DNA of 64,000 nucleotides from an uncultured Candidatus Saccharibacteria bacterium (GTDB lineage: Bacteria > Patescibacteriota > Minisyncoccia > UBA6257 > 1-14-0-10-44-23), in NCBI GenBank assembly GCA_964549935.1, contig CAZJVT010000002.1:121336-185335 (forward strand), written 5' to 3'. Position numbers and translations under genes: made by a program. Below are positions 15,222 through 60,017 of the stretch, piece by piece. Every line of letters begins with the position of its first letter. The stretch's first letter is position 1. Under the pieces are notes generated by a model that saw only the letters and a program-made list of their open reading frames with translations, made no database searches and was not told the origin of the DNA.

Positions 15222-15424
15222 GGGTTATAAAAAGCTATAAATTTGACAGTGTTGTATTGCTATTAAGGTAGCATTAATGGGATTTAATGTCAAACGCTAC
15301 CCCTTTCCGCTGCTCGAGCCACATGCAGTTTCTGCATTTGAATCGAGTGGCGGGCAGGAGCGTCGGTCTAAGACCGAGCTCCTGCGCCGTTTGCGACCTA
15401 GGCACCGGCTGAAACCGGTGATCC

Positions 15425-15991
15425 TCACTCTGCGTCATTGTGCTTGGCGAGGATCTGCCAGAGCACCTGCTCGATCGGACCGACCGAGTCCTTCGGGTCA
15501 GGATGAGCGCAGACGATGGGTGCATCGTTGGCCATCTTGTTTTCCCGGACGAGCCTCTTGAACGCCTTGCGACAGACACCGCAGGGCTCGAGCAACTCAG
15601 TCGGGACACCCGACTCGTTGTCGACTTGGATGTCGCCGACAACGCACCCGCCGATGATGTGGCGGTAGCCGGCACGCCACGCCTTGTGAATCGCGCGGCG
15701 CTCGGCGCAGCATTTCTTCCGCGGCTTCATCTCCTTGTGAGTGTGCCGCTTGATCTTCCTCCCGGCGACCTCGCCGCCGCTCTCGCAGAAACATTCATCC
15801 TTTTTGCGACAAGGACGCTTCATGTTTCCCGCGGAGAAGATCTGGAAGTCACCGCAGTCGTTTTCCGCCAAGAAGGCGGCGCCGACACAGAAACCGCGGT
15901 AACTATCCGCATCCTCGGCGTGTGCCACGCGCGCCGAGAGTATGAGGCCTTCCTTGCGAGCAAGGTAGGCAGCAAGCTTTCGGTCGTCCAT
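15425..15991 (-). CDS. CDA-fold cytidine/deoxycytidylate-type deaminase; high-GC cassette gene
   Basis: SYRGFCVGAAF...CCAERRAI...EPCGVCRKAF, i.e. C/H-A-E ... P-C-x2-C zinc motif. High GC. GGAGG ribosome-binding site 6 nt before the ATG. Confidence 0.55.
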   Translation of the reverse strand: MDDRKLAAYLARKEGLILSARVAHAEDADSYRGFCVGAAFLAENDCGDFQIFSAGNMKRPCRKKDECFCESGGEVAGRKIKRHTHKEMKPRKKCCAERRAIHKAWRAGYRHIIGGCVVGDIQVDNESGVPTELLEPCGVCRKAFKRLVRENKMANDAPIVCAHPDPKDSVGPIEQVLWQILAKHNDAE

Positions 15992-16041
15992 GGTGCACCT
16001 CCGAAAATGACCCGCAGAGTACGCCTCTGTGGTTAATGTAT

Positions 16042-16071
16042 ATTATATCACACAAATGCCTATTTTGTCAA
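16042..16071 (-). promoter_or_regulatory. Consensus sigma70-type promoter for the deaminase cassette
   Basis: Minus-strand sense TTGACA-18 nt-TATAAT, then about 45 nt of leader with GGAGG before the ATG at 15991. Confidence 0.55.
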
Positions 16072-16133
16072 TACCCCAGTACCAGAGCCTGCTGGCGCGG
16101 TACGGGGCTAAGGCTCAAAAAGTACATAACGAA

Positions 16134-16228
16134 AAAGCCCCCTCCAAAGGCGGGCAAGCCTGACGCGGGGCTTTAAGGATGCAGCAAGGGCAAAAAGCAA
16201 CCGGGCGGCCTACTGGCCGCCCGGTTGA
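16134..16228. repeat. U1 dispersed repeat module plus a 13-bp-stem hairpin that is the secDF terminator on the minus strand
   Basis: ccccctccaaaggcgggcaagcctgacgcggggctttaaggatgcagcaagggcaaaaagc, then caaccgggcggcc-tact-ggccgcccggttg. Minus-strand sense is hairpin followed by UUGCUUUUUGCCC. Confidence 0.6.
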
Positions 16229-16239
16229 AAATCCCCTAT

Positions 16240-16275
16240 TTACCCTACTGACTAACCGACTAACTGATTAGCCGG
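16240..16275. repeat. 7-nt-periodic CTAAC/CTGAC-type array abutting the secF stop
   Basis: cctactgactaaccgactaactgattagccggttaacg. Confidence 0.5.
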
Positions 16276-17202
16276 TTAACGATTCCGCTTACCCTGCCAG
16301 ACAACCAATAACGGGCTTGCGACGAAGATCGAAGAGTAGGTTCCGGCGATAGTACCAACGAGCATCGCGAGCACGAACCACTTCAAAGTCGCGGCACCGA
16401 GCAAGAATAAGACGGCGAGGACAATGAAGAGCGTCATCGACGTATTCAGCGAACGAGCAAAGGTCTCATTGATAGAACGGTTGACGAGGCCGCCGAAGTC
16501 TTCGTTGGCTTTACCGGTGCGAAGGTTTTCGCGAATGCGGTCGAAGACAACGATGGTGTCGTGTACCGAGAAACCGATGACGACGAGCACGGCGACGATG
16601 AAGTTGGTATCAACTTCGATGCCCATAAAGTGACCGAGGAAGGCAAACAGTCCGACCGGGATAATCGCGTCGTGGAACAAGGTGAGCAGCGTGATTAACG
16701 CGTACTTCCATGATGAAACCGGCTGGCTAACCTTGCGGAAGGCGTAGGCAACGTAAAGTGCGATAGCGATCAGGTTGATGCCGAAGGCCCAGAGCGCCTT
16801 ATCGGCAAGCTCGCGACCGATCGAAGCACCGATTGACTCAAAGGAGAGCTCGTCAAACTTTCCAAACTTTGCGCGAAACTCGGTGACCATCGCCTGGTGG
16901 GTCGGCTCGGTCATCTCTTTTGTTTTGACGATAAAGGTCGCCCCATCATCCTGCGGAGTCACGACGGCATCGGTAATCCCCTTAGCAACTAAAACCGCAG
17001 AAATGCTTTCCTGTGTCGGCTTCGCTAAAGTCGCCGGAGTTGTCGATGAAACAGCGACCGGAGTGAACTGGATCTGCCAGAGTGTACCTCCGGTAAAATC
17101 AATAGCCGGCTTAAGACCAAAACCAAAGTATCCGTAAATACTTGCGACAACGAGTACCGCCGAGAATCCGAGGAAGAGCCACTTGTGTTTGATGACGTTC
17201 AT
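16276..17202 (-). CDS. secF: Protein translocase subunit SecF
   Basis: MNVIKHKWLFLGFS...AIDFTGGT; six TM segments. Confidence 0.9.
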   Translation of the reverse strand: MNVIKHKWLFLGFSAVLVVASIYGYFGFGLKPAIDFTGGTLWQIQFTPVAVSSTTPATLAKPTQESISAVLVAKGITDAVVTPQDDGATFIVKTKEMTEPTHQAMVTEFRAKFGKFDELSFESIGASIGRELADKALWAFGINLIAIALYVAYAFRKVSQPVSSWKYALITLLTLFHDAIIPVGLFAFLGHFMGIEVDTNFIVAVLVVIGFSVHDTIVVFDRIRENLRTGKANEDFGGLVNRSINETFARSLNTSMTLFIVLAVLFLLGAATLKWFVLAMLVGTIAGTYSSIFVASPLLVVWQGKRNR

Positions 17203-17217
17203 ACGTGTATTTCTAGA

Positions 17218-19041: not shown

Positions 19042-19359
19042 ATGCATTTTATGGGGTCATTCTTTAGCTCAGTCAGTAGCGGCGTCCTAGTAGCCATTGT
19101 AGTGGCTGTATTCGGCTTAGGAACAGTCACGGTAAGGATTGTCAGCGGCCCCGCCAAGCAAGCTTCTAAAATCGGGGACCGTCTTATTGGCGCCGCCTGG
19201 ATTATGATGATTCTAGGTGCCGTTTTATTTGGTTCCCATCAGGGCCAATTCGTAAACCTGGGCGCCAATGATATTTATGCAATGCTCGGAGCTGATTTGA
19301 TGGGTCTTAGTATTTTTTTCTGGTGCGCTGGTAAGCTCAGCCGGTTATTTTTCCGATAA
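19042..19359 (+). CDS. Small hypothetical membrane protein
   Basis: Three predicted TM segments; lies just downstream of tRNA-Lys. Confidence 0.45.
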   Translation: MHFMGSFFSSVSSGVLVAIVVAVFGLGTVTVRIVSGPAKQASKIGDRLIGAAWIMMILGAVLFGSHQGQFVNLGANDIYAMLGADLMGLSIFFWCAGKLSRLFFR

Positions 19360-19363
19360 AGAC

Positions 19364-20239
19364 ATGACTGATAATACGCAGAAACAGCAAGGTAAAAATC
19401 CGTTAAAGACCGAGCTGGATGAGTCGCATGCTGCGAGAATCAAAAAGCTCAGGGACCAGGAACCGCAGCTTGCTATATTTCTCCAGAGACACCCTGACGC
19501 TCCCGCTGAACAACGCGAAAAGGATAAAATGGCCATCGCGATAGAAATTACACGCCTGGAGGCGATTCTTGAAGGCGTCGCCCCCTTCGTTTACAAGATT
19601 CGCGGATTGATTCCCGATATGCTTGCAGAGACAAAAATTGCAGCCAGCTATTTCATCTTCGGAAAAATATTGCAGAGTTTACAGGCCATATTCGTACTTG
19701 CGAGAGGTGGTTTCCACTATGAATGCATGGAACTTATCCGCTCTATAACAGAATCAAGTGACTTAATATTTTTATTCATGTCAGGCAATGATGAGTCTGC
19801 CGATTTGAAAAAGTGGTTTTCGGGTGGGATTGTTGCAAACGAAAAGGCCCGATTAGCAATGGAAAAATTCATGAATGAGCAAGCCGCTAAGGCAGGCGTG
19901 ATCTTGCCTGTAGGTCCAATGATGGCCGGCATCTATGGGGGTCTATCAAAATACACCCACATTTCTTACGGCGCCCTCCTTGATTCATACGACCTATATA
20001 AAAAGGATTTTGATTTCGGAAGGCAGGCGGGGCACCACTATACACAGCAAAGCAGTTTGCCGTATACAGCAGATGTACTTAACGCAACGATTGTTGCGCT
20101 CAAATTTTTCTATCACTCGCTAAATGATTCGGCTACTTTCGCAGAGCTAGACGCCGCTCTAAGAAAGATTGCCCCAGAAATGTACGACCCTGAGCGGATT
20201 GAAGAGCTTACCAAGCGCACGCTAGAGAGATTCTCCTAG
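19364..20239 (+). CDS. Hypothetical protein (291 aa)
   Basis: Long ORF with backbone-like composition and no recognised motif; sits between tRNA-Lys and a high-GC cassette. Confidence 0.5.
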   Translation: MTDNTQKQQGKNPLKTELDESHAARIKKLRDQEPQLAIFLQRHPDAPAEQREKDKMAIAIEITRLEAILEGVAPFVYKIRGLIPDMLAETKIAASYFIFGKILQSLQAIFVLARGGFHYECMELIRSITESSDLIFLFMSGNDESADLKKWFSGGIVANEKARLAMEKFMNEQAAKAGVILPVGPMMAGIYGGLSKYTHISYGALLDSYDLYKKDFDFGRQAGHHYTQQSSLPYTADVLNATIVALKFFYHSLNDSATFAELDAALRKIAPEMYDPERIEELTKRTLERFS

Positions 20240-20351
20240 AGCACATGGACTGGACATTTGTCTCAAAATAGTTTATTATCCTGCCTACGGTTTCGTTGGC
20301 ATTTTCGGCATGTGCCGAAGTGTTGCAACGAGCCAGACAAGGAGAGAAGCG

Positions 20352-20837
20352 ATGATGAAACGTTTCGGACCGCCCTACCTGACGAAAGGCTCCGATGGAC
20401 CGTTCGTTCTGGCGATGCAGATCGCCATCAAGGCCGCGATGATGCCGCACGAGGCGGCGCTCAACATCATCTGCGATGGCGAGTTCGGCGACATGACCGA
20501 GCTCGGCGTCAAGTGTCTCCAGTCCAACCTCGGCTTCGAGGGAAGCGGCGTCGACGGCTGCTTCGGGCCGAGGACCAGGGACGCGTTCTTCCAGAAGTAC
20601 GGGATCGACTTCAACTCGATGCCCTACGGCATCTTCGCCGGAGAGACCACCTGGTTCAACGGAGACAAGAACATGGGCGTCTGGACCGGCGAGATCGCGG
20701 AAGACCCGCGCCGGCCCTGCCGCTGCAGTGCCCCGTTCTTCCTCCACGACGAGGACGGGATTCCGGATCAGTGCTCGGGGTTCAAGGAGCCCGAGCAGGC
20801 CGCCACCTCCGGCAGCACCAACTGCGGGGGTCTGTAG
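20352..20837 (+). CDS. Peptidoglycan-binding-domain (PG_binding_1-like) protein; high-GC cassette gene
   Basis: AAGGAGAG ribosome-binding site then ATGATG. Motif DGEFGDMTELGVKCLQSNLGFEGSGVDGCFGPRTRDAFFQKYG. GC much higher than its flanks. Start refined from the track ORF 20310. Confidence 0.55.
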   Translation: MMKRFGPPYLTKGSDGPFVLAMQIAIKAAMMPHEAALNIICDGEFGDMTELGVKCLQSNLGFEGSGVDGCFGPRTRDAFFQKYGIDFNSMPYGIFAGETTWFNGDKNMGVWTGEIAEDPRRPCRCSAPFFLHDEDGIPDQCSGFKEPEQAATSGSTNCGGL

Positions 20838-20974
20838 GCCATGGAGGCGCTCGAGAGGAACCCCGACCCGCCTCCCGGCGGTCATGACCACTCGACGGGC
20901 AAGCACGTGAACTAGCCCGTCTCCAACGCCCGGCGCCACGGCAGCGCAAGCTGTCGTGCGCGCCGGGCCGCAAT

Positions 20975-21235
20975 TCGCCCCTACCTCGCCCAACCGTGAG
21001 GAGGGGCGTCGTAGTTTTTGCCCTTACTGCATCCCTAAAGCCCCGCGTCAGGGGCTTATATAATGATCAGTAAGGGCACACCCGGCGATTATGTATTCAT
21101 AAGCGGTAAGGGTGCTTCAAATAGTTTGCATCCTTAAGCGCCGCTTCAGGCGCTTTTTAAATTGAGGAGCGAGGAGCGCACCCGACGATTGCGTACTCGC
21201 AATCGGAAAGGGTGTTTCCATGCCCACGTACTCCG
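20975..21235. repeat. Composite cassette-end repeat: hairpin, TTTTTGCCC, U1 (reversed), U2, U3, U2
   Basis: tttttgcccttactgcatccctaaagccccgcgtcaggggctt...gcacacccggcgattatgtattcataagcggtaagggtg...gcatccttaagcgccgcttcaggcgcttttt...gcgcacccgacgattgcgtactcgcaatcggaaagggtgtttcc. The modules recur at 16134, 43864, 45971 and 46755. Confidence 0.6.
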
Positions 21236-26153: not shown

Positions 26154-27065
26154 ATGCGCTCACTCAAAGGCAAAAATATTACCTGGTACGACATCGTCAA
26201 ACCAAACGACGAGGATCTGGCCGAAATCGTCAAAGTCCACCCGCTCCACCCGATTATCGTCGAGGAGCTCGCTCATCAAAGCAACCGAACTCGCATTGAA
26301 CACTACGGCGACTATTTATTTTTGGTCTACCACTTCCCTGAATACGACCCGGTGACCAAAACCAGCCGCCGCACCGAACTCGACTTCGTCATCACGAAAA
26401 ATAAAATCATCACCGTCCACTACGAGCCGCTTAAACAGCTCGACGGTCTTTTCGATTACCTCGGCAAAGATGCAAAAGAGCGCGCTCGTATTCTTTCCGG
26501 CGACACGCTGCTTGGCACCTATTATATTTTCGAACGCCTTATCGCCTTCAGCCTTCGCCAACTGCGCCACATCGAAGAAGAGGTCGCTAAAATCGGCGCC
26601 AACATCTTTACTGACCGCGAAGAAGAACTGCTACGCGACATTTCGACGATCAAGCGTGACATTATTGATTTCCGCCTCATCACCCACTCACAGGAGCACT
26701 TCTTAAACACGCTGCGTGAACTCGGCGAACGCTTCTGGGGCAAGAAGAGCGAGATTTATATGAACGACCTGGTCAACGACAACCAGCCGGTTCACCGCAA
26801 TATCGAAAACTACTACGAAACGATTGAGTCACTGGAAAGCACCAATGGCCAACTGCTTGATGCAAAAACCAACCGCATCATCAAACGCTTCACCGTCGGC
26901 GCGTTCCTCTTTTCAATTCCGCTCTACTTCGTCTTCTACTCCGAGTTTTCGTATATCCACGCCATCTTTGCAGCAACTCCGCTGGCGTTTTGGACCTCGT
27001 TTGTCGTTATTCACAGCGTCGTGATAACGCTTTGGTTTGTTTTCAAAAAACGGAAAATTATATAG
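26154..27065 (+). CDS. CorA-family divalent cation transporter-like protein lacking the canonical GMN motif
   Basis: Cytoplasmic N-domain plus two C-terminal TM helices. KRFTVGAFLFSIPLYFVFYSEFSYI occupies the place of ...PLTFIAGIYGMNF. Start placed at MRSLKG, with TATAAT 6 nt upstream. Confidence 0.6.
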   Translation: MRSLKGKNITWYDIVKPNDEDLAEIVKVHPLHPIIVEELAHQSNRTRIEHYGDYLFLVYHFPEYDPVTKTSRRTELDFVITKNKIITVHYEPLKQLDGLFDYLGKDAKERARILSGDTLLGTYYIFERLIAFSLRQLRHIEEEVAKIGANIFTDREEELLRDISTIKRDIIDFRLITHSQEHFLNTLRELGERFWGKKSEIYMNDLVNDNQPVHRNIENYYETIESLESTNGQLLDAKTNRIIKRFTVGAFLFSIPLYFVFYSEFSYIHAIFAATPLAFWTSFVVIHSVVITLWFVFKKRKII

Positions 27066-27170
27066 TGTTCACGAACATACGAACTCTCGAAACACACTAA
27101 CGGGAGTGAGATTTTTGTTCGCATGATTAGTGTGTTTGTATGTTAGCGATTACTATAAAAAACACATAGC
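27066..27170. repeat. About 105-bp dispersed MITE-like repeat, copy 2
   Basis: tatagtgttcacgaacatacgaactc...gtatgttagcgattacta; matches 11929..12034. Confidence 0.6.
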
Positions 27171-27232
27171 CGCCCGACACGACTAGAGGTGTTGGACGGC
27201 TTAGATTGCGAAGTGTCGGGTAGAACTAGCGG

Positions 27233-27670
27233 TCACTCGGGAACGAGCCTGGTGAAGTGGCCGTCGGAGGCGACGACGCCTTCGGGGCGAAGCGCCAGAA
27301 CCCAGTCGACGACCCTGATGAAGACCGGGAACTCTTCCCATGCCTGCGAGAAGAGTCTGTGTCTATACCAGAGGTCAACGATCACGTAGTGACAGGAAAC
27401 GGATGCCGCGGACTTGTAGGAATACGGATGCTCTTTGGTCCCGTACCCTACGACATAGTTCACTTGATCACCCCCGCTGTATGGCCGCGAGTCATACCGT
27501 CCATCGTCCGGGTTCGGTTCGAGGACGGTGATGCCGTCTTCCTTGGAGAGGTGGATCGGACCGGCCTTGCGCCGGGCTTCAGCGAACGAGAAGTCTCTAC
27601 TCATGTCTCCCTCCCGGAGCATGGCCGGACAATACCGGCATTGGTGTTTTCTACCCGAATTTGGGTGCAT
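27233..27670 (-). CDS. Hypothetical protein; high-GC cassette gene, leaderless
   Basis: High-GC ORF MHPNSGRKHQCRYCP... directly downstream of a perfect promoter. Terminator hairpin cccgacac...gtgtcggg plus T-tract at 27164-27215. Confidence 0.5.
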   Translation of the reverse strand: MHPNSGRKHQCRYCPAMLREGDMSRDFSFAEARRKAGPIHLSKEDGITVLEPNPDDGRYDSRPYSGGDQVNYVVGYGTKEHPYSYKSAASVSCHYVIVDLWYRHRLFSQAWEEFPVFIRVVDWVLALRPEGVVASDGHFTRLVPE

Positions 27671-27672
27671 AT

Positions 27673-27701
27673 ATTATACACCCATTTATCTATTTTGTCA
27701 A
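27673..27701 (-). promoter_or_regulatory. Consensus promoter TTGACA-17-TATAAT, with the -10 element 2 nt from the ATG (leaderless)
   Basis: Minus-strand sense TTGACAaaatagataaatgggtgTATAATatATG. It shares the TTGACAAAATAG -35 context with the promoter at 16042..16071. Confidence 0.55.
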
Positions 27702-34980: not shown

Positions 34981-35119
34981 AGTGGAGATATAATACAAAA
35001 CTTTGACAAAAAAATCAATTTCCGCAAAGATAAATGTCTGTGAGCCTCGCTTCGGGGCTCGAGAAAGGAGAAGGCCCATTAATACTTCAACTTGGCGTAC
35101 CAAACCGCATCCCGGCAAG

Positions 35120-35419
35120 ATGCTGGCATCAATGCGACTCGGATTCGATTACATCGAAGAGTACAACGCCTTCGTTCGGATCGGTCCTGTCGGCCCGGGA
35201 AATCCGGGGAAGCATCGAATCGAAACTCGAGACCGCTCCATGCGCGTTCCCGCTAGATCGGAAACCAAGTCCGGAGAGCGCCGCGCCAGACGCTACTTCG
35301 TGCTTGACGCTCTCGCAGGCGACAAGCGCCAGTGGTTCCTAAGGCACCTTGCCCCCTTCCTGAACGAACCGGGCGTCTACTACGTCGACGACGGCTTCAA
35401 GGTCGTTCCGGCCACCTAG
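35120..35419 (+). CDS. Hypothetical protein; high-GC cassette gene next to tRNA-Glu
   Basis: High-GC ORF ending at 35419. The start is uncertain: the track ORF begins at 35003 and ATG 35120 is taken here. Confidence 0.4.
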   Translation: MLASMRLGFDYIEEYNAFVRIGPVGPGNPGKHRIETRDRSMRVPARSETKSGERRARRYFVLDALAGDKRQWFLRHLAPFLNEPGVYYVDDGFKVVPAT

Positions 35420-35444
35420 CGCGGGAGCTCGTCGCGACGACCCG

Positions 35445-35480
35445 AAAGGAGTTCGTCCCGTGACGGGCTCCTTTTCGTTC
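35445..35480 (+). terminator. Intrinsic terminator of the high-GC cassette
   Basis: aaaggag-ttcgtcccgtgacggg-ctccttttcgtt. Confidence 0.5.
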
Positions 35481-43007: not shown

Positions 43008-43372
43008 CAAATTACAAATTTTAAATTGTAAACAACTTCGTAACAATACCATAGTTAGAAGCGTTACAAGAAGTAAGTGGGAGAAAGTTCTCGCCTCTTG
43101 ACACGGATGCCAAGACTTACCTATTCTTGCCCCGCGTTGCTCAGCCGTTTGCCTCTGATGCACGACGCGGGCAGTGAGACAGAAGCTCGGCTTCGGCTCA
43201 CTGCCCGCAACACAGCAGCAGACCAAACGCCTGGCAACCCCTTGGGCTCTGGTCAATTTTCACCATCTCTGTGTCGGAATGTCCTCGAAGTGTAGCTACG
43301 CACACTCCTTGCGGCATTCCTTCGTGAGCTGATGAAAATTGACCTAGAGCGCGGGGTAAAAATAGGTATGTC

Positions 43373-43401
43373 TTGACATCTTGCTTATAGCGTGCTATAA
43401 T
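43373..43401 (+). promoter_or_regulatory. Perfect consensus promoter TTGACA-17-TATAAT
   Basis: TTGACAtcttgcttatagcgtgcTATAAT, followed by a roughly 200-nt structured leader. Confidence 0.6.
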
Positions 43402-43601
43402 GACCTTGTCAGCTAATAAACGACTGCTCTTTGAAATACGGGCCACCGAACAGGTGCAGCCCGTTTTTTGTTACCCGCGTCTCTCCTGCCTTGCCTCGCC
43501 GAAGCTTCAGCGAAGGCGGGCGCCCAATACCAAGCCGGGCGTTCGCCTTCGTGGCTACTTCGGCGGAACAAGGCAGGAGGGAGTTCATCTCACAATATGA
43601 G

Positions 43602-43811
43602 ATGGATCGCGGTCGTCACGCGATTTTCAACCCACTCACCCTGTACACCCGTACTATGTCTAGAGCAATCGGGTTTGCGATCGCGCTTGTTACGATCGCG
43701 GTCTTCTTACCGGATGTCTTCCATTCGGTAGAAGCTCTTCTCCTGAAGAGTCTTGTTCTCGCCAATGCGAGTCTCGACTCGCTCGCTTCCGTCGGACACC
43801 TTGTCCGATAG
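43602..43811 (+). CDS. Small high-GC membrane protein (69 aa), putative
   Basis: GGAGGGA ribosome-binding site; MDRGRHAIFNPLTLYTRTMSRAIGFAIALVTIAVFLPDVF... An alternative ATG exists at 43597 in another frame. Confidence 0.35.
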   Translation: MDRGRHAIFNPLTLYTRTMSRAIGFAIALVTIAVFLPDVFHSVEALLLKSLVLANASLDSLASVGHLVR

Positions 43812-43863
43812 AGCTTGAGCACCATCGCCACCTTCAACAGGTGGCGGTGCTCGTTCGCCCTTG

Positions 43864-43959
43864 CTACATCCTTAAGCGCCGCATCAGGCGCTTTTATAAT
43901 TAAGTAGCAAGGAGCGCACCCGACGATTGCGCAATCGCAATCGGAAAGGGTGTTTCCAT
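43864..43959. repeat. Cassette-end repeat modules U3 and U2
   Basis: ctacatccttaagcgccgcatcaggcgctttt...gagcgcacccgacgattgcgcaatcgcaatcggaaagggtgtttcc. Confidence 0.6.
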
Positions 43960-43961
43960 GA

Positions 43962-44618
43962 CTAGCTTTTCCAATTTTCTTCTCTATCTGGATCACCGGC
44001 TAAAACTGCCGCGCAAATACGCTCAGCTCCCGAATTCTGTAATAATTCAGCGCATCTACGGAGACTTGCTCCAGAGCTCACAACATCATCAACCAGCATG
44101 ATGCATTTTGGAACAGGCTGCTTGTTCTTAAGCTGATACATAGCACCAGCCATCGCATCACGGTCCTTCCAGTTGTGGCGTTTTATAGGCAATTCTTTTC
44201 TGCGCGATAATAATTTATTATTTACAGAACAAGAGTAAGGCGTTTGCTCATTAATCACTTTAGCCAACGAAGACGCGAGAACTTCAATTGATCCGAAGCG
44301 GCTTGGTATCGGAACAAGCACAACCTGCCCGCCGATGCTTCTTATCCATTTTAAGATTTTGGGAATAAGGATTGGCCAACCCACCCGGGCAAGCTCTTTG
44401 GCGACATCAAGCTTTCCAGCTCGCGCCTCTTTTTTCATTCGATTCTTGAGATATGAAAAATAACCGCCACTCTCAAAAAGCCAGCCTGCAAAAACCATCT
44501 CGATTTCAGAGCCTTTCAGCAAAGAAAGATAACGAGCGTGCGCCCTCGTGCTCGAAAAAGGCTTAACAATTTCTGGCCGCAGGTCGACTTTAAAGTTGTT
44601 TGCCGCAGAATTTCTCAT
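43962..44618 (-). CDS. comFC: ComF-family phosphoribosyltransferase-domain protein (competence protein ComFC-like)
   Basis: C-terminal PRTase motif IMLVDDVVSSGASL. Confidence 0.7.
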   Translation of the reverse strand: MRNSAANNFKVDLRPEIVKPFSSTRAHARYLSLLKGSEIEMVFAGWLFESGGYFSYLKNRMKKEARAGKLDVAKELARVGWPILIPKILKWIRSIGGQVVLVPIPSRFGSIEVLASSLAKVINEQTPYSCSVNNKLLSRRKELPIKRHNWKDRDAMAGAMYQLKNKQPVPKCIMLVDDVVSSGASLRRCAELLQNSGAERICAAVLAGDPDREENWKS

Positions 44619-45746: not shown

Positions 45747-45970
45747 GAAATTTATTCTATAAATTTCACCCCATGAGATACCGTACTCGGTCATCTCTTA
45801 GGGGTAACTATTGTTCGACCCGGGTTTTTAATAAAAAACGACCCGTATGGGCCGTAGAAAAACACAGAAAACGCAACTTTCGTTGCGACTCCTCGGCAGG
45901 ACTTACGTGTTCGCCTGCTTTCTACGGATGTGGATATAGTACATGAAAACCGCTAAGCCGTCAAACAACC

Positions 45971-46131
45971 GCGCCCTCCAGAGGCGGGCAAGCCTGACGC
46001 GGGGCTTTAGGGATGCAAGACCGTTGAAACACCCTTACCGATTGCGAATACGCAACCGTCGGGTGTGCCCTTACTGCTTAATTATATAAGCCCCTGACGC
46101 GGGGCTTTAGGGATGCAGTAAGGGCAAAACA
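45971..46131. repeat. Composite repeat: U1, U2 (reversed), U1, then a terminator hairpin
   Basis: cgccctccagaggcgggcaagcctgacgcggggctttagggatgcaag...(U2 reversed)...aagcccctgacgcggggctttagggatgcagtaagggcaaaacacg. Confidence 0.6.
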
Positions 46132-46368
46132 CGAAAGGGGCCGAGAGACTGCCACTTTCGTGGTACCTCGAGGCCCCTTCATTGCTTGCCCGGCTCCGCG
46201 CGGGTGTTGTCCCCGCGCGGAGGCCGATATTGTCGCGACGCTAGCAGCGTCGCGGCGGACGGTGGCCGCTCGGCCGCATGTTGGCCGGCGGCTTGCCACG
46301 AGGGTGCTGTGCGCCCCCGTGCTGGTGACCACGCCTGACTGCCGCCACCTTGAAGACCTTGTTGGCCC

Positions 46369-46590
46369 TCACGGCTGCATCCCCATGTAGGGGGCGCGAC
46401 CGACGATCTTGCTCTGGTTCGTCGGCGGCGGGAGTTTCCCGTTCGGCGAGATGAAGCTCTGAGCTCCCTTGTGCCACGCCCCGCCGTGGGGTCGGAGGTC
46501 CGACACCGGCGTCTCATCGAGCACTTGATGGGCCTGTGCCGCCTCGGAACGCCTTGCCCGCGACGATCGCGGACGTCCTTTACTGCTCAT
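46369..46590 (-). CDS. Hypothetical small protein; high-GC cassette gene
   Basis: GGGAGG ribosome-binding site 8 nt before the ATG. Promoter-like TTGATT-16-TATAGT at 46724-46751. Structured leader. The reading frame is uncertain in a very GC-rich region. Confidence 0.35.
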   Translation of the reverse strand: MSSKGRPRSSRARRSEAAQAHQVLDETPVSDLRPHGGAWHKGAQSFISPNGKLPPPTNQSKIVGRAPYMGMQP

Positions 46591-46754
46591 CCGGCGCCTC
46601 CCTGATCGAATCCCTTCCTCGCCATCGACCCCCCAAGGTCGGAGCGGGAGTTTTATCCTCGCCTAAAAGACAAAACTCCAGCTCCGATTCCTAGTGGAAT
46701 GAGTGCGAAAGAAGATTACAGAAACTATACACCTGACGCAATAAAAATCAATTA

Positions 46755-46797
46755 AAGCCCCTGGCCCGCGCTTTAAGGATGCAGCAAGGGCAAAACA
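46755..46797. repeat. U1 repeat module
   Basis: aagcccctggcccgcgctttaaggatgcagcaagggcaaaacac. The terminator hairpin ggggtcgt...acgacccc follows immediately. Confidence 0.5.
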
Positions 46798-46857
46798 CTA
46801 AGGGGTCGTTGACACCTCAGTGTACGACCCCCTGATTGCTCCTCCCTGACCTTGCGG

Positions 46858-47016
46858 TCAAATCTTCGCCAAACGGGCGATGATGTCCTTGTCCTCGGAT
46901 ACTTCGCCGAGGGCCTCCTCCGTTTCTTCTGCGGGCGCCATGATAGTCACCCGCAGCTCGGGGCAGAAGTACCCCGCCGAGCAGACCGGACAGACACGGT
47001 TGTCTTCGTCCATCAT
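46858..47016 (-). CDS. Small zinc-ribbon protein (52 aa), absent from the ORF track
   Basis: Ribosome-binding site GGAAGGAGGG then ATGATG; MMDEDNRVCPVCSAGYFCPELRVTIMAPAEETEEALGEVSEDKDIIARLAKI; TGA stop. A terminator and U1 module lie downstream. Confidence 0.45.
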   Translation of the reverse strand: MMDEDNRVCPVCSAGYFCPELRVTIMAPAEETEEALGEVSEDKDIIARLAKI

Positions 47017-47252
47017 CTTCCCTCCTTCCCGCCCCGCGCGCGAAGCGCGCGGGGCCGTGACTACTGATCAGTACCGCGGTTCGAACCCCGCGAACTTGCG
47101 CTGCGGATCACGCAGCACTTCGTAGATCGCCGGCGGCCCCTTGCGAGGCGGCACGATGACCGGACTTCCGGTGACCGTCTTCGGCGACGAAGCCGGCGAG
47201 ATGGGCTGCCCACCCACCGGCACTCCCTTGAGCGACACTCCGATGGTGCGCT

Positions 47253-47639
47253 TCACGAGCGCACCGTCTGAAAGGTCCGGGTCGCGGTCGTGTCGTCGTC
47301 GCATTCGCCCATTGCGCGGCACTGCTCCACCGCGGCATGGAAACGACTGAGCGCGAGCTTCCGCATCTTCTCGCGATAGGCCTTGGGCGAGACGAGCTGG
47401 TCCGGATCGACTCCGGCCACCGTCTTCTCGTCGTAGAAGACATGCTCGTCTTCCGTAGCGAACTCGACCATGCGCCCCGTGGGACGCGTGAACGGCGTCT
47501 TCCGTTCTTCGAGCACATCGTTCGGCAGATCGGCATCGCCGACCTCGCAGCAGTCGGCCCTTCCGCGGCCGACCAGCGACTCCGAGCCCGGGTCCTTCCC
47601 GCCACCCAGAGTCACTGCCAGAACCAAGAAAATGCTCAT
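47253..47639 (-). CDS. Small secreted protein (signal peptide); high-GC cassette gene
   Basis: GAGGAGG ribosome-binding site 4 nt before the ATG; MSIFLVLAVTLGGG...; promoter TTGACT-17-TATAAC at 47784-47812. Confidence 0.45.
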   Translation of the reverse strand: MSIFLVLAVTLGGGKDPGSESLVGRGRADCCEVGDADLPNDVLEERKTPFTRPTGRMVEFATEDEHVFYDEKTVAGVDPDQLVSPKAYREKMRKLALSRFHAAVEQCRAMGECDDDTTATRTFQTVRS

Positions 47640-47783
47640 CCTGCCTCCTCAATCCCTCTCTTGCCCCCTCGACCGCGTCAGCTCCCCCCGGAGCCAATCA
47701 CAAATCGAGCTTCAGGCGAGAAATCAGAGCTCGTCAAAGCACTGAATTCTCGCCTGAAAATAAAAAGGCACCTACAAAGAACT

Positions 47784-47812
47784 AGAGTGTGTTATACATC
47801 TATTGGTAGAAA
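47784..47812 (-). promoter_or_regulatory. Promoter TTGACT-17-TATAAC for the high-GC cassette. A 12-bp-stem hairpin (47716-47772) follows immediately in the leader.
   Basis: Minus-strand sense TTGACTttttctaccaatagatgTATAAC. Confidence 0.45.
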
Positions 47813-47908
47813 AAGTCAATAGCACTAGAGCCCGAGACTCACGCTAGAAACAGACGCATACCACACTTTCATTGTATGCCCGCTCGCTCAACTACGCAAT
47901 CAAACTTA

Positions 47909-48574
47909 TTAACTCCCGCGCTGCACACGCCACTCGTTAATCAACTTGTGATTGCCTTCCATCAAAACCGCTGGAACTTTTAAAGACTTTTTGCCGAGCT
48001 TAACCACCTCCGGCTTTGTATACACCGGGTAGCTGCCCTGATTTTCTTCGAGCGATTCTGTTTTGCCAAGAACTCCTGGGATCTGACGCGAGACCGCGTC
48101 GATGATAATGGCCGCACCCAGCTCTCCCCCGGTAATCACGTACTCACCGAGCGAGATCTCCTCATCGGCGACGTACTGCGCCACGCGCTCATCTACGCCT
48201 TCGTAACGGCCGCAGATAAAGATAATCTGATCGTAAAGCGCTAAACGTTTAGCGTCTTTATTGGTGAATTTTTCCCCGCGAGTGCTGAGCAGTATCACTC
48301 TCCTACGTTTCACGTTGCGCGTTTTACGTTTCACGGCCGCGACTGCGTCGGCAATCGGCTGAAAGGCCATTACCATCCCCGCCCCACCGCCATACGGCCG
48401 GTCGTCCACCTTTTTGTGCTTATCTTTTGAAAACGCACGAATGTCGTGCCCCTTTACGGCAATCAGCTTCTTTTCCTGCGCGCGCTTTAAAATCGACTCG
48501 GAAACGTACGAGTCGAGCATCTTCGGGAAAATCGTGAGAATATCAAACTTAATCATGGCATCTAGTTTTACCAC
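47909..48574 (-). CDS. trmD: tRNA (guanine37-N1)-methyltransferase TrmD
   Basis: SPOUT knot motifs RPYGGGAGMV and ICGRYEGVDERV. The loop KRKTRNVKRRR is encoded by the heptamer array at 48304-48336. Confidence 0.9.
   Translation of the reverse strand: MVKLDAMIKFDILTIFPKMLDSYVSESILKRAQEKKLIAVKGHDIRAFSKDKHKKVDDRPYGGGAGMVMAFQPIADAVAAVKRKTRNVKRRRVILLSTRGEKFTNKDAKRLALYDQIIFICGRYEGVDERVAQYVADEEISLGEYVITGGELGAAIIIDAVSRQIPGVLGKTESLEENQGSYPVYTKPEVVKLGKKSLKVPAVLMEGNHKLINEWRVQRGS
48304..48336. repeat. 7-nt-periodic ACGTTTC-type array lying in frame inside trmD
   Basis: tacgtttcacgttgcgcgttttacgtttcacgg. Confidence 0.65.
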
Positions 48575-48850: not shown

Positions 48851-48904
48851 AAAACCCGCCCATCGCCTCGCAGAAGCTTTAGCGAAGGCGGGTGGCGGGT
48901 TTTG
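48851..48904 (-). terminator. Long imperfect hairpin terminator. Its core GAAGCTTTAGCGAAGGCGGG recurs at 43505 and, in frame, inside smc at 52400.
   Basis: aaaacccgcc catcgcctcgcagaagctttagcgaaggcgggt ggcgggtttt. Confidence 0.55.
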
Positions 48905-48939
48905 ACTGTCTGCTAGCTACTGTCTCCTGACTACTGGCC

Positions 48940-55588: not shown

Positions 55589-55591
55589 GGA

Positions 55592-56296: not shown

Positions 56297-56300
56297 AGGA

Positions 56301-58289: not shown

Positions 58290-58507
58290 TATAGCGTCTC
58301 AATGATTTTCTTTAATGCGGCGACTTCATCTTCGCAAATCTTCTGAACTTTCAGGGGGTCACCGTCTTTCAATGCACTTATTTTTTCTCCTACTGCAATT
58401 GCGAAAGGCTCGTAAAGCTCAGGGTATTTTGCCAATAATTCGAAAACTTCGAGTTGCTGACTACTCTCTAAATCGCGGACTAAATAAGCAAGATCAATTT
58501 GTGTCAT
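58289..58507 (-). CDS. Small hypothetical protein (72 aa)
   Basis: ATGA start/stop overlap with nusB. Confidence 0.35.
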
Positions 58508-58941
58508 GCGGTGGGATTCTCTTTCTGCATCTTATGATACACGGTACCAAGCACGCCGTTAATAAACTTACCGGAGTTCGGGCCGCCGTAACTCTTAGCC
58601 ATCTCAATCGCCTCGTCGATGGCGACCGGAGCCGGAACCTCTTTGCGGTCGGCAAACAAAAGTTCGTAGAGTCCGATGCGCAGGGCGTTTCTGTCTATCG
58701 GCGCGATCTGGTCAATCGGCCACTCCGGAGCCGCCTCCATGATCGTCTTATCAATCTCCTTCATATGCGTCACCACGCCCGTCTTAAGCTTCGACATAAA
58801 CTCCTTTTCGGCCTCAAGACCCGGACCAAACTCGGCGGTGTTACGCGCGATGATAGTATCGAGGTCTTCTTTCTGGCCATAAAAATCCCACTCATAGAGG
58901 GACTGCAAAACTATTGAGCGTGCTAATTGACGACTGGCCAT
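58504..58941 (-). CDS. nusB: Transcription antitermination factor NusB
   Basis: [18 protein letters not shown]...; start placed at MASRQ; TGA stop. Confidence 0.8.
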
Positions 58942-58956
58942 AGTGATAGATATACA

Positions 58957-58996
58957 ATAAACGAAAAACAATAAACAATCAAAGAAACGAAAACGG
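58957..58996. repeat. 7-nt-periodic A-rich array upstream of nusB
   Basis: caataaa cgaaaaa caataaa caatcaa agaaacg aaaacgg. Confidence 0.45.
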
Positions 58997-59022
58997 GGCT
59001 TGCGCCCCATTTTCTTACATTC

Positions 59023-59178
59023 TTATTTAGCAAGCCACTTCTTCGGGATAATCTTGTGCGGGAAGGTCGGCAGCTTGGTCTCCTTGTCTGCAACAATATT
59101 AAGAGGCTTTAAAGCCAAGTGGCTGCGGCGGCGGCGAACTTTACCGCTGGTAGGATGTTTAGGAGGTAGTGAACCCAT
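59023..59178 (-). CDS. rpmF: 50S ribosomal protein L32 (51 aa), absent from the ORF track
   Basis: MGSLPPKHPTSGKVRRRRSHLALKPLNIVADKETKLPTFPHKIIPKKWLAK. Confidence 0.65.
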   Translation of the reverse strand: MGSLPPKHPTSGKVRRRRSHLALKPLNIVADKETKLPTFPHKIIPKKWLAK

Positions 59179-59304
59179 AGTGGTAGCTGTAATTACTAAT
59201 GCAAAAGAGAATACCAGAAAGACTTAAAATATGCAAATGGGTTCTCTGTCGGGGCGGCGCGCGCGGCGCCGCCCCGATCAGATCGCTCCCGGCCGAAGCC
59301 GGGG

Positions 59305-59802
59305 CTACTTCTTCGGCTGCTCGTCCGTAGTGACGTACGACACGAGCGCGATGTCCTTGAACTTGATCCCACGCTCGGGCGCGCTGCGCCAACCAGCATC
59401 GTCATAGAAGACTGTGTCGCCACGCAGATAGGGCACGAGGTCACCGTTGGACCGGACTTCGATGACGAACTCGCCGTTCTCGCCCGGTACCGCCGGCGTT
59501 TCGTCGCCCGCCCACAGGTACAGCTCGCCTTCGTAGACGCAGACGTCGAGCCTGGTCACCGAGCAGAAGAGAGGCTTGTTCTGGGCCTTGGCAGCCTCCT
59601 TGATCTCCAGCAGCTTGGGTCGATGGACGAAGTAGTCCACCGGAACCTTGGCGCTACCGACGTAGTCGATCTTCTGGGTTCGGTCGAAATCGCCAGCCTG
59701 GGCCGTCTCGACTCGGGTGACCGCGATCACCGCAATGACGATTGCGACCACCAACGCAACCGGAATCGCCACCTTCATCATCTTATCCAACGGATCTCTC
59801 AT
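59305..59802 (-). CDS. Hypothetical membrane or secreted protein; high-GC cassette gene
   Basis: MMKVAIPVALVVAIVIAVIAV...; high GC; 12-bp GC hairpin terminator at 59252-59280. Confidence 0.45.
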   Translation of the reverse strand: MRDPLDKMMKVAIPVALVVAIVIAVIAVTRVETAQAGDFDRTQKIDYVGSAKVPVDYFVHRPKLLEIKEAAKAQNKPLFCSVTRLDVCVYEGELYLWAGDETPAVPGENGEFVIEVRSNGDLVPYLRGDTVFYDDAGWRSAPERGIKFKDIALVSYVTTDEQPKK

Positions 59803-60017
59803 CGAACCCTCCCTGCCACCTGCGGGACCATTCCCGTTTCGGACTCAACAACCCTAACAATTTTCTAGTAAAATCGTCAATTTGAGCCGGTGATTAAAAT
59901 GCGCTATCATATTAGTGTTAATTTTTTATCCAACTGGATAAAAAATTAAAAATAAATTGTATGTACACCCAATCTGCAACATATCTTAAACATCTTCCAG
60001 CGCGAGGTGTTTTTATT

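Follow-up and report, generated by a model that had tools for sequence, protein, structure and literature searches.

The GC-rich loci dispersed along the stretch of DNA analyzed here (the window, 64 kb) are explained best, with about an even chance of being right, as autonomous "moron-like" accessory units that occupy a limited number of intergenic slots flanked by housekeeping genes, belong to a clade-wide pool with fast turnover and are separate from the repeat module lying beside some of them. The window has an overall GC content of 50.9% and comes from the chromosome of a member of the Paceibacteria (CPR/Patescibacteria), a tiny genome of the episymbiont type; the first-pass annotation, which had judged the backbone to be episymbiont-like, was correct in this respect. 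The analysis was based on these 64 kb of the genome and a few loci of 10 to 20 kb from five relatives.

Windowed GC analysis detected GC-rich patches at 15.6-16.0, 20.4-21.2, 27.2-27.6, 46.0-47.6 and 59.2-59.6 kb. At least seven loci with 65 to 70% GC had been proposed; seven of the eight were richer than the 51% backbone, but the GC contents of these seven transcription units were lower than estimated (0.59 to 0.65). Codon usage was likewise nonuniform, with GC3 values of 0.71 to 0.90 in cassette ORFs compared to a mean of 0.567 ± 0.078 and a maximum of 0.694 in the 57 backbone genes used as the reference for GC3 and Shine-Dalgarno (SD) counts (Mann-Whitney p = 1e-5). The shift was regional, affecting nearly every codon family and the untranslated regions (GC of 0.53 to 0.82 versus 0.44 in other intergenic DNA), and GC1 and GC2 were only mildly raised. 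The segment at 43.1-43.9 kb does not belong among the GC-rich cassettes in which it had been placed, as its ORF has an ordinary GC3 and the local GC content is due to two very stable RNA-like hairpin regions. Judging from 90% amino acid identity in relative L086, c43 is a conserved gene and not a variable cassette. The adjacent noncoding segment, nc43, had no Rfam match and was missing from the equivalent gap of L086.

The predicted anatomy of a unit comprised a sigma-70-type promoter, a GC-rich and often structured leader, a strong SD motif, one to three small ORFs and a GC hairpin (Table 1; promoters, leaders and terminators are predictions from sequence). As had been proposed, the loci can be regarded as a distinct class of accessory units, each self-contained and deviating in composition. 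Textbook promoters had been reported at several loci: TTGACA-N17/18-TATAAT was matched at 12 of 12 positions in c15, c27 and c43, but the matches were weaker at c20, c46b, c47a and c59 and no convincing promoter was detected at c35. The extended -35 context TTGACAAAATAG was indeed common to c15 and c27 (family D13). All loci ended in a hairpin, followed in most by a T-tract, which was not clear at c15 and c59. Two cassettes had been described as abutting tRNA genes; c35 does start ∼25 nt from tRNA-Glu, but c20 is separated from tRNA-Lys by 1.5 kb of DNA that includes two accessory genes without GC enrichment. The predicted products were mostly exported or membrane orphans, with the addition of a cytidine deaminase-like protein (c15; Pfam, 1e-6; PDB 1zab, 6e-5) and a protein whose N terminus matched peptidoglycan-binding domains (c20). 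Both matches were weak, and c46zn, a putative "zinc ribbon," contains only three Cys residues.

Table 1. Positions in the window of predicted units, genes and repeat module copies
Feature	Position	Strand	Description
c15 unit	15425..16071	-	Promoter TTGACA-18-TATAAT 16071-16042; SD GGAGGT
c15 CDS	15425-15991	-	188 aa, cytidine deaminase-like; GC3 0.77
secF terminator + module a	16126..16227	-	Hairpin 16227-16198, followed directly by partial module 16195-16137
c20 unit	20251..21019	+	Promoter TGGACA-17-TATTAT 20251-20279; SD AAGGAGAG
c20 CDS	20352-20837	+	161 aa, N-terminal peptidoglycan-binding-like domain; GC3 0.90
c20 terminator	20976-21008	+	Hairpin, then T-tract
Modules b + c	21012..21224	+	Tandem; b 21012-21125 full, c 21126-21224 variant
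c27 unit	27167..27701	-	Promoter TTGACA-17-TATAAT 27701-27673; SD GGGAGGGAG; terminator 27185-27167; no module
c27 CDS	27233-27604	-	123-aa orphan; GC3 0.73
c35 unit	35003..35480	+	TTGACA at 35003, no good -10 box; hairpin 35437-35478; no module
c35 ORF	end 35419	+	Putative start ATG 35120 or non-ATG after AAGGAGAAGG ∼35070; GC3 0.71
nc43	43098..43357	+	Promoter TTGACA-18-TATTCT, then 228-nt GC-rich, highly structured, apparently noncoding segment; fold z = -8.4
c43 unit	43373..43852	+	12/12 promoter 43373-43401; short hairpin + T-run; terminator 43818-43852
c43 hairpin	43478-43585	+	110 nt, buries GGAGGGAG; fold z = -9.3
c43 CDS	43656-43811	+	51-aa membrane protein; GC3 0.58
Module d	43849..43962	+	Full length; variant with compensatory stem changes
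Modules e + f	45955..46133	-	Tandem; e 46133-46020 full, f 46033-45955 partial
c46b unit	46131..46751	-	Promoter TTGATT-16-TATAGT 46751-46724; 130-nt leader; SD GGGAGG; terminator ∼46175-46131
c46b CDS	46369-46590	-	73 aa, basic, low complexity; GC3 0.77
Module g	46715..46799	-	Partial; directly 3' of c46zn terminator, overlaps c46b promoter
Three-gene unit (c47a-c47x-c46zn)	46800..47819	-	Promoter TTGACT-17-TATAAC 47819-47791; conserved leader hairpin; terminator 46833-46800
c46zn	46858-47016	-	52 aa; GC3 0.77
c47x	47068-47259	-	63 aa; GTG start overlaps c47a stop codon; GC3 0.81
c47a	47253-47639	-	128 aa, hydrophobic N terminus; GC3 0.81
c59 unit	59245..59880	-	Promoter TTGACG-18-TAGGGT 59880-59851; SD GGGAGGG; GC hairpins 59250-59304; no module
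c59 CDS	59305-59802	-	165 aa, N-terminal membrane anchor; GC3 0.81

A contrast in predicted translation signals between cassette and backbone genes had been overlooked in the first-pass annotation. SD matches of at least 5 nt were detected in seven of nine cassette genes, at a spacing of 5 to 9 nt from the ATG, versus 2 of 57 backbone genes (Fisher p = 1.6e-6), and at most 6 of 57 backbone genes had one when other possible start codons nearby were considered. The motif was correctly placed more often than cassette composition predicts (P = 7e-5). A -10-like hexamer was located 5 to 12 nt 5' of the start in 21 of 57 backbone genes compared to 9% at random positions, and many backbone genes look leaderless. 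Two gene "dialects" seem to coexist in the genome, one of SD-led GC-rich units and one of backbone genes without an SD. The association between SD and GC richness was weaker in relatives (Fisher p = 0.017), and SD-led accessory genes in the higher-GC relative L085 were barely GC deviant.

Backbone proteins were 65 to 92% identical among the compared genomes, and the cargo was much less similar (54% or 35% identity, or no similarity). Slots, often together with promoter and leader, were kept in syntenic relatives. The c15 promoter was kept in three genomes, with positional orthologues in L084 (54% amino acid identity) and L003; the cargo was 54% identical in one genome and ∼33% identical over the core in another. 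An orthologue of c20 with 35% identity and a GC3 of 0.82 occupied the same site beside dnaJ in L003, and a 45% homologue of c59 (P0011) was present beside dnaE in L085, with promoter and leader kept. These positional orthologues span genera and have conserved promoters; c15, c20 and c59 are long-term residents and not recent insertions. Other slots varied in occupancy between relatives, which supports this part of the earlier interpretation. The corA-cysS site that holds c27 was empty in L003 (39-nt gap), no relatives of c27 were found in JGI metagenomes, and L040 had a cassette (GC3 of 0.87) at a site empty in both the window and L003. In the trmD-rplJ slot, four genomes kept the promoter and a hairpin in the leader that showed compensatory changes. 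Promoter and leader of the three-gene unit were conserved in L086, L087 and L089 with unrelated cargo (c47a and the L086 cargo had no similarity; E > 100), and the slot was empty in L090.

The sequence TTTTGCCCTTRCTGCATCC occurred five times in the window, versus 0.01 expected, at 16177(-), 21016(+), 43853(+), 46111(-) and 46777(-). It marked the module that had been described after the T-tracts at 20.3, 43.6, 46.1 and 46.8 kb, and a second palindromic module was also confirmed. The copy at 16.18 kb, 3' of the backbone gene secF, had been missed. The module is ∼105 nt long and has two hairpins (fold z-scores of -4.8 to -6.9), compensatory changes at 6 of 32 pairs among four copies and weak terminal inverted repeats (GCCCTTAC...GTAAGGGTG). 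Modules b and c end ∼40 nt from the stop codon of the convergent dnaJ gene, module d ends at the stop codon of a convergent gene (43962-44618), and modules e and f, the latter of the same subtype as a, are flanked by the c46b terminator on one side and by the rplJ promoter and L10 leader on the other. No convincing copy was found in 36 related loci. The secF terminator was identical in L084 and L003, which lacked the module, and the module is therefore an independent insertion at this site. Modules had been interpreted as attC- or MITE-like cassette ends, but of the seven GC-rich transcription units only three were followed by one, and modules were also present after c43 and secF. Overall, the module is a separate, genome-specific, REP/BIME/MITE-like element, neither attC-like nor a cassette end. 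It would land directly 3' of terminator hairpins and form tandem, mosaic arrays in permissive intergenic regions that also hold units.

The model of integron-like or MITE-bounded mobile cassettes, with the modules as attC-like recombination ends, is already largely refuted and is highly improbable. It could account for the location of all seven module copies or fragments in cassette-containing intergenic regions, for three of five arrays (four of seven copies) being directly 3' of GC-rich unit terminators, and for the strong, compensated structure. However, c15, c27, c35, c47a and c59 had no 3' module, other modules followed a backbone gene or a conserved gene, the secF site was empty in relatives that had the adjacent cassette, and relatives with cassettes lacked the module. 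The cassettes were also dispersed on both strands with their own promoters, and no integrase or transposase was detected in the 64-kb window. An assembly chimera, in which high-GC reads were misjoined into a CPR bin, could be suspected from the sharp GC boundaries of a MAG-derived sequence but is extremely improbable, as independent Logan assemblies of two runs (L001 and L083) reproduced the secDF-module-c15 and DUF5677-c20-module junctions and five other MAGs from different studies had the same slots and architecture.

Repeated direct import from high-GC, SD-using donors outside the CPR, possibly the host, with genes retaining donor codon usage, SD and terminator, is an unlikely source of the units. 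Elevated GC3, a codon shift in all families, GC-rich untranslated regions and SD motifs are classic foreign signatures, presence varies between relatives, and the best structural matches of the c20 domain were to Streptomyces and endolysin domains. Against such an origin, which had been suggested earlier, every cargo protein searched was either an orphan or matched only proteins encoded at the corresponding locus of related CPR genomes, and no high-GC donor was found. No donor homologue of c15, c20 or c59 was found in libraries of 1.8 to 5.8 billion proteins; searches for c27, c35, c46b, c46zn and c47a consisted of look-ups of exact clusters, Pfam/NCBIfam/PHROGs and scans of close relatives. 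None of ten cargo proteins taken from relatives had a Pfam match, which is unexpected if the genes came from high-GC phyla that have been well sampled. Also arguing against import are the conservation of promoters and leaders across genera and the mild rise in GC1 and GC2. Horizontal transfer in Patescibacteria is mostly among Patescibacteria themselves (PMC12455944). Remnants of CPR phages, either true morons or prophage debris across the chromosome, are an improbable source: prophages have been reported in Paceibacteria (PMC12455944), the anatomy fits the moron definition and orphan cargo is typical of phage genes, but the surroundings lacked genes for phage structural proteins, integrases and repressors, and the neighbors were secDF, dnaJK, cysS, rplJL, trmD and dnaE. 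The cargo had no match in phage, plasmid and viral collections (PHROGs, INPHARED and IMG/VR among them) other than a domain-level endolysin match for c20.

Passive decay of composition (amelioration) after an old transfer does not fit the data, since the c20 genes of the window and L003 both retained a GC4 of 0.88 while backbone 4-fold sites were 36 to 45% identical (∼1 substitution per site). Under the preferred reading of autonomous accessory units, the units would belong to a gene pool shared across the clade and turning over fast, in which conserved flanks may permit homologous recombination and thereby exchange or replacement of cargo. The GC-rich, SD-led dialect would be a maintained property of this pool, as opposed to the dwindling trace of genes imported from a high-GC host. 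It may be maintained by selection for SD-dependent translation of structured mRNAs and/or by GC-biased gene conversion at recombining slots. Recorded effects of GC-biased gene conversion in bacteria are far below the GC3 excess of +0.25, and the ribosomal protein genes gave no sign of codon selection.

Like the REP/BIME elements of enterobacteria and MITEs such as the Correia elements of Neisseria, the module is extragenic, located after gene 3' ends and terminators or between convergent genes, with strong, compensated hairpins, tandem mosaic arrays of subtypes, species specificity, an empty site in a relative and weak terminal inverted repeats. It is longer than REP, having two different hairpins in ∼105 nt, and differs from REP and MITEs in having no consistent target site duplication and no RAYT or transposase in the 64 kb. 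Integron cassettes resemble the units in being small, mostly orphan accessory genes, some with a structured, imperfectly palindromic 3' repeat. In contrast to integrons, the window has no intI, attI or Pc, the units are dispersed on both strands with their own promoters, and the repeat is absent from most units, present after backbone genes and devoid of the R''/L''-L'/R' core-site organization of attC.

In Bacteroidota, translation is SD independent, the anti-SD is sequestered and rpsU keeps an SD. The anti-SD motif is missing from one Parcubacteria subgroup (PMC9297842). As in these groups, nearly all housekeeping genes here lack an SD and a small set has a strong, well-spaced one; this set, with its predicted SD, consists of GC-rich orphan accessory genes and not, as in Bacteroidota, of a ribosomal protein autoregulatory gene. 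The units resemble the horizontal transfer hot spots or "islets" of streamlined genomes in that variable genes are concentrated at a few conserved intergenic positions, some of them tRNA adjacent, but each is a single gene whose resident promoter and leader are conserved, none is accompanied by mobility genes, and the cargo lacks outside relatives. A phage moron, as defined by Hendrix and Juhala, is an extra single gene of deviant composition that carries its own promoter and terminator and is inserted between two genes lying side by side in related genomes. The units likewise consist of one to a few genes with their own predicted sigma-70 promoter and hairpin terminator, deviate in GC from the backbone and separate genes that are direct neighbors in relatives (corA and cysS in L003; trmD and rplJ in L090). 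Unlike morons, they reside in a bacterial housekeeping chromosome, keep their slots, promoters and leaders from one genus to another as the cargo changes, and differ from the backbone in the translation initiation signal.

The window had an overall GC content of 50.9%, and its long ORFs encoded housekeeping functions: secD/secF, dnaJ/dnaK/grpE, corA, cysS, dnaB, recR, a mraZ-mraW-ftsI-murE block, rplJ/rplL, trmD, rpsS16, khpA, smc, rnc, nusB and dnaE. By DnaJ comparison, the nearest genomes were L003 ('Harrisonbacteria' nzgw427; 72%) and L040 (GCA_964641225.1; 74%), both Patescibacteria MAGs of the Paceibacteria/Parcubacteria type, and hence the description of the backbone as episymbiont-like in the first-pass annotation was correct. 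The same sequence, including the junctions between the backbone and the GC-rich cassettes, was present on short Logan contigs of two separate runs. One of these contigs (L001) reproduced the order secD-secF-repeat module-c15 and another (L083) the order DUF5677-c20-repeat module, c15 and c20 being cassette genes named, like the others, by their kilobase position. These results indicated that the GC-rich inserts are not an assembly artefact. Two large VirD4/TraG-like (TrwB_AAD_bind, T4SS-DNA_transf) ATPase genes, encoding coupling proteins of the DNA transfer type, were present in the window and kept in a relative; no further conjugation genes were seen. The DnaB homologue of L003 was 904 aa in length versus 445 aa in the window, which suggests that it may contain an intein or other insertion.

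The GC-rich patches were visible in a sliding GC profile of the window. The by-eye estimate of 65 to 70% GC was too high, however, as the GC content by transcription unit was 0.59 to 0.65, about 5 points lower. GC3 was 0.77 in c15, 0.90 in c20, 0.73 in c27, 0.71 in c35, 0.77 in both c46b and c46zn, and 0.81 in both c47a and c59. In the 57 backbone genes, GC3 was 0.567 ± 0.078 and did not exceed 0.694 (cassette versus backbone, Mann-Whitney p = 1e-5). Nearly all codon families were shifted (98% TTC in cassettes versus 38% in the backbone, 89% versus 53% for AAG, and 84% versus 42% for ATC), and the GC content of the cassette UTRs was 0.53 to 0.82 compared to 0.44 in the remaining intergenic DNA. 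The deviation is therefore regional and extends beyond codon choice, and the units differ in base composition from their neighbors, as morons do.

Exact TTGACA-N17/18-TATAAT sites were detected 5' of c15, c27 and c43 (a conserved 51-aa gene). The claim of consensus promoters held for these three loci; only weaker promoter-like sites were found 5' of c20, c46b, c47a and c59, and none was convincing for c35. Consensus scans and direct reading indicated that a predicted promoter and a predicted intrinsic terminator of their own bracket one or a few genes, another moron feature. A contrast that the first-pass annotation had not remarked on was seen in the translation signals. A strong Shine-Dalgarno (SD) sequence (GGAGG or GGGAGG) lay 5 to 9 nt 5' of the ATG in seven of nine cassette genes versus 2 of 57 backbone genes (Fisher p = 1.6e-6). 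The enrichment remained when the composition of the cassettes was taken into account (P = 7e-5), and a check for start codon uncertainty detected an SD at any in-frame start within the first 40 codons in at most 6 of the 57 backbone ORFs. In relatives, SD-led genes were again small orphan accessory genes. A crude automated screen for GC-rich ORFs led by an SD, covering all 76 loci, gave results with too much noise for use. Among backbone genes, 21 of 57 had a -10-like hexamer 5 to 12 nt 5' of the start, compared to 9% at random positions, which suggests that many backbone mRNAs may be leaderless. Among Parcubacteria, only 48% of 16S rRNAs have been reported to contain a detectable anti-SD motif (PMC9297842). 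Period-7 tandem repeats (ACGTTTA, CACGTTT, CTACTGT, CTAACTA, TACGATC and others) occurred at gene boundaries of the window, several of them directly 5' of the starts of SD-less backbone genes such as dnaB and dnaE. Genes of L085 and L087 are preceded by comparable repeat leaders, and the repeats may serve as leaders without structure or as spacers rich in stop codons.

The positions of the units were compared with those in three MAGs that share synteny with most of the window (represented by loci L003/L087, L040/L084/L086, and L085) and, for the rplJ region, also with L089 and L090. As with morons, the units were located between genes that are direct neighbors in relatives. In all three syntenic MAGs, c15 was flanked by secF and a sigma-70-like gene, and its promoter (TTGACAAAATAGG...TATAAT) was conserved in relatives, with a protein identity of 54% in L084 and, for the catalytic core, ~33% in L003 compared to 79 to 90% for the neighboring proteins. 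A 35% orthologue of c20 (GC3, 0.82) adjoined dnaJ in L003, and a 45% homologue of c59 adjoined dnaE in L085, with promoter and leader conserved. At the trmD-rplJ slot, which holds c47a in the window, both the promoter, with an invariant AATAGRTGTATAAY, and a leader hairpin were kept in four genomes. The stem of this hairpin had compensatory changes and differed in each of the four (window, CAGGCGAG/CTCGCCTG; L086, CGGACGGG/CCGTCCG), and the loop motif ATTCAGTGCTTT was common to the window and L086 only. The cargo of this slot was unrelated, with no alignment at E ≤ 100 between c47a and a 129-aa protein of L086, and in L090 the slot was empty, with trmD and rplJ adjacent. The leader is a possible cis-regulatory RNA before unrelated cargo. 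The c27 site was empty in L003 (39 nt from corA to cysS) and occupied by an unrelated low-GC gene in L040. Conversely, the corA-grpE site, empty in the window and L003, held in L040 a cassette of 189 aa (GC3, 0.87) equipped with a promoter, an SD and a terminator of its own. The positional orthologues, the kept promoters and leaders, and the unrelated or absent cargo together indicate that the slots are old and that their cargo turns over or diverges very fast. Beside tRNA-Lys, which is inverted relative to L003, there were two accessory genes that are absent from L003 and not GC rich; the tRNA-Lys slot therefore also accepts cargo of ordinary composition.

Searches with the cargo proteins returned few relatives. 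The c20 protein matched only itself among 5.8 billion proteins, and the sole match of c15 in the protein search was its syntenic CPR orthologue. For c59, one full-length CPR homologue was found among 1.8 billion cluster representatives, along with short motif matches in giant proteins. No relatives were detected for c27 in JGI metagenomes, for c20 and c47a in IMG/VR, or for c59 in phage genomes, and the phage, plasmid and IMG/VR collections gave no matches. Nearly no family matches were obtained with Pfam, NCBIfam and PHROGs for the nine cargo proteins of the window and one of L040 or with Pfam for nine more from relatives; none of the 10 cargo proteins from relatives matched Pfam. Weak matches were limited to c15 (tetrameric cytidine-deaminase-like) and the N terminus of c20 (peptidoglycan-binding-like). 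The c15 protein contained the zinc motifs CCAER and PCGVCR (CAE and PCxxC of tetrameric cytidine deaminase) and a basic, Cys-rich insertion of ~40 aa. It scored 29 bits against PF00383 (cutoff, 25), 25.7 bits against TIGR01354, far below the cutoff of 113.65, and 6e-5 against PDB 1zab. An AlphaFold2 model of c20 made without an alignment had a pLDDT of 34 and was unusable.

The shared 3' repeat module was present as reported, with five matches to its core versus 0.01 expected, and the second, palindromic module was also found. The full module is ~105 nt long. Helix P1 (GCCCUUACUGC/GCAGUAAGGGC) encloses a 7-bp hairpin, and a second domain has CACCC...GGGUG around an 8-bp stem. Fold z-scores were -4.8 to -6.9, and compensatory double changes were observed in 6 of 32 pairs with only four copies compared. 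Three subtypes of the module were present in the window, as four full and three partial copies grouped into five tandem or mosaic arrays, all of which began at the T-run directly 3' of a terminator hairpin (secF, c20, c43, c46zn and c46b). Two of these terminators belong to a backbone gene (secF) and a conserved gene (c43). Among the GC-rich units, the module followed only c20, c46zn and c46b and was absent after c15, c27, c35 and c59, so that its proposed role as an attC-like cassette end was not upheld. The secF terminator hairpin CCGGGCGGCCAGTAGGCCGCCCGG was identical in relatives, leading straight to the c15 promoter in L084 and to a methyltransferase gene followed by the c15 promoter in L003, in both cases without the module. 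The module is therefore an independent insertion, with an empty site at secF in a related genome, as for a MITE. Its ends, GCCCTTAC...GTAAGGGTG, were inverted-repeat-like, and TTTTT flanked copy 'a', with no consistent duplication at other copies. Relatives carried cassettes but no module. When scanned for the exact pattern of the module core, GTDB species genomes, JGI metagenomes and IMG/VR gave no match, nor did plasmids and phages in a blastn search with the array; the module, the leaders and the structured segment nc43 matched nothing in Rfam 15 at gathering and permissive thresholds. Two weak covariance model matches (26 and 23 bits) in loci of the closest relative were different hairpins after terminators and were not accepted as module homologues. 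As relatives have cassettes without the module and c15, c27, c35 and c59 lack it at their 3' ends, the module appears to behave as a REP, BIME or MITE element and not as attC. It is a new genome-specific structured repeat family; to our knowledge, structured repeats are poorly described in this lineage.

The 43.1- to 43.9-kb locus, originally listed as a GC-rich cassette, was of a different kind. The c43 gene encodes a conserved membrane protein of ordinary GC3 that was 90% identical in L086. Its 110-nt leader hairpin stands behind a 12/12 promoter and resembles an element for translational control or the arrangement of a type I toxin. The adjacent nc43 segment had no coding signal and no Rfam match, was missing from the equivalent gap in L086, and is a candidate small RNA or structured insertion. 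Only tRNAs reached the gathering score in the Rfam 15 scan. A possible ribosomal protein L10 leader was present 5' of rplJ, behind a TTGACG-17-TACTAT promoter. A hairpin was conserved between two genera, a palindrome shared with a relative looks like an operator, and another motif recurred in several genomes.

Coordinates of structured elements, repeats and additional genes in the window and, where labeled, in loci of related genomes
Feature	Position (strand)	Description
c43 leader	43408-43655 (+)	Short hairpin and T-run, then 110-nt near-perfect hairpin sequestering GGAGGGAG; z = -9.3
nc43	43098-43357 (+)	Two-arm structure of 228 nt, GC rich, very stable and preceded by a promoter; z = -8.4
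c47x	47068-47259	Extra ORF; GTG start overlaps c47a stop codon; GC3 0.81
trmD-rplJ leader	47690-47790 (-); L086 8960-9060; L087 8950-9040; L089 3520-3610	Conserved 3' of promoter
Candidate L10 leader	45824-45945 (-)	Sub-threshold Rfam match, 33.6 bits (gathering, 44)
Hairpin CCCGTACCGNGCCAGNAGGCTCTGGTAC	16079-16106 (-); L085 4256-4283	Just 5' of c15 promoter in window; 5' of dnaE in L085
Palindrome TTACAGTGTACTAGTACACTGTAA	35497-35526; L087 6515-6548, 19400-19436	Perfect
45-nt repeat TATATAGTGTTCACGAACATAC...	11928-11972; 27059-27103	At two gene boundaries, 91% identical; 27.06-kb copy part of imperfect hairpin
Motif GCCTCGCCGAAGCTTCAGCGAAGGCGGG	43493-43520; 48865-48892; 52402-52429; L086 7688-7720; L019; L044	48.87-kb copy is core of khpA terminator hairpin
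Period-7 tandem repeats	972-1010; 4016-4041; 6990-7033; 10395-10425; 29213-29253; 44780-44802; 48305-48335; 48905-48936; 60023-60053	
VirD4/TraG-like pair	8643-11928 (-); L084 6761-11817	
DnaB homologue	L003 1120-3834	
Accessory gene pair	19042-20239 (+)	105-aa ORF with SD and DUF5677 protein, between tRNA-Lys and c20

Several explanations of the GC richness were weighed. Codon selection was dropped because ribosomal protein genes were not GC3 rich and the UTRs were GC enriched as well. One ancient import that has since ameliorated passively was rejected, as fourfold sites of the backbone were only 36 to 45% identical among these genomes (~1 substitution per site) and GC4 was still 0.88 in both members of the c20 pair and ~0.8 in both members of the c59 pair. 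At such divergence, either the GC richness is actively maintained or the cargo is repeatedly resupplied from a GC-rich pool. The cargo searches pointed to no high-GC donor, actinobacterial or otherwise, and the relatives of c15 and c59 were CPR. The most likely source is, we infer, an accessory pool internal to the clade with a maintained 'dialect'. While the original observation was largely confirmed, its interpretations as an integron- or MITE-type cassette system and as cargo from a host donor were not.

A tentative reading, which we consider somewhat improbable, is that these Paceibacteria keep two such dialects on a single small chromosome: an SD-less, often leaderless backbone of ~50% GC and an actively maintained set of GC-rich, SD-led orphan accessory genes with structured leaders, placed in fixed slots downstream of conserved promoters and leaders. 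The latter class would form a translationally insulated regulon that is read only with SD/anti-SD pairing and is evolving or swapped much faster than the remainder of the genome. In an extreme form, the dialect would be adapted to be expressed, after nucleic acid transfer, in a host cell that is GC rich and uses SDs; the T4SS coupling-protein-like genes at 8.6 to 11.9 kb may be cited beside this proposal, which is very unlikely.

CPR/Patescibacteria are thought to be host dependent, and the genes mediating this dependence are mostly unknown. High GC3 together with an SD in an otherwise SD-less genome is a simple signature for fast-evolving, mostly exported orphan genes at conserved slots, and genes so marked are natural candidates for host interaction or surface functions. 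The lasting GC richness of positional orthologues at near-saturated synonymous divergence offers a test case for selection versus GC-biased conversion versus repeated import. The contrast also bears on translation start in Parcubacteria, about half of which show anti-SD loss (PMC9297842), and on two initiation modes per cell.

Comparison with known systems placed the units and the repeat in separate categories. No integron recombinase IntI with attI and Pc was found by Pfam among ORFs of at least 140 aa at 8.6 to 63.2 kb, which yielded only housekeeping, T4SS-ATPase-like and unknown proteins. Integron arrays are promoterless, tandem and co-oriented, whereas these units lie scattered across 45 kb in both orientations, with promoter-like sites of their own; attC follows every integron cassette, whereas the module is missing after most GC-rich units and present after secF and c43. 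The units resemble morons in having their own predicted promoter and terminator, a position between genes adjacent in relatives, and deviant composition. Morons, however, sit in phages or prophages, and the neighbors here are secDF, dnaJK, cysS, dnaB, rplJL, trmD and dnaE. The module resembles REP/BIME elements in forming mosaic or tandem arrays of extragenic imperfect palindromes next to the 3' ends of genes, and no RAYT was present in the 64-kb window. No description of such an arrangement of units and repeat was found in the literature searched. Overall, the GC-rich loci are best described as moron-like accessory transcription units that occupy conserved slots in a CPR chromosome and stand out by their GC richness and by an SD, a signal otherwise lacking from the genome. 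A separate genome-specific structured repeat accumulates in the intergenic regions that hold these units. The units and the repeat are thus variants of morons, horizontal gene transfer hot spots and REP/MITE repeats.
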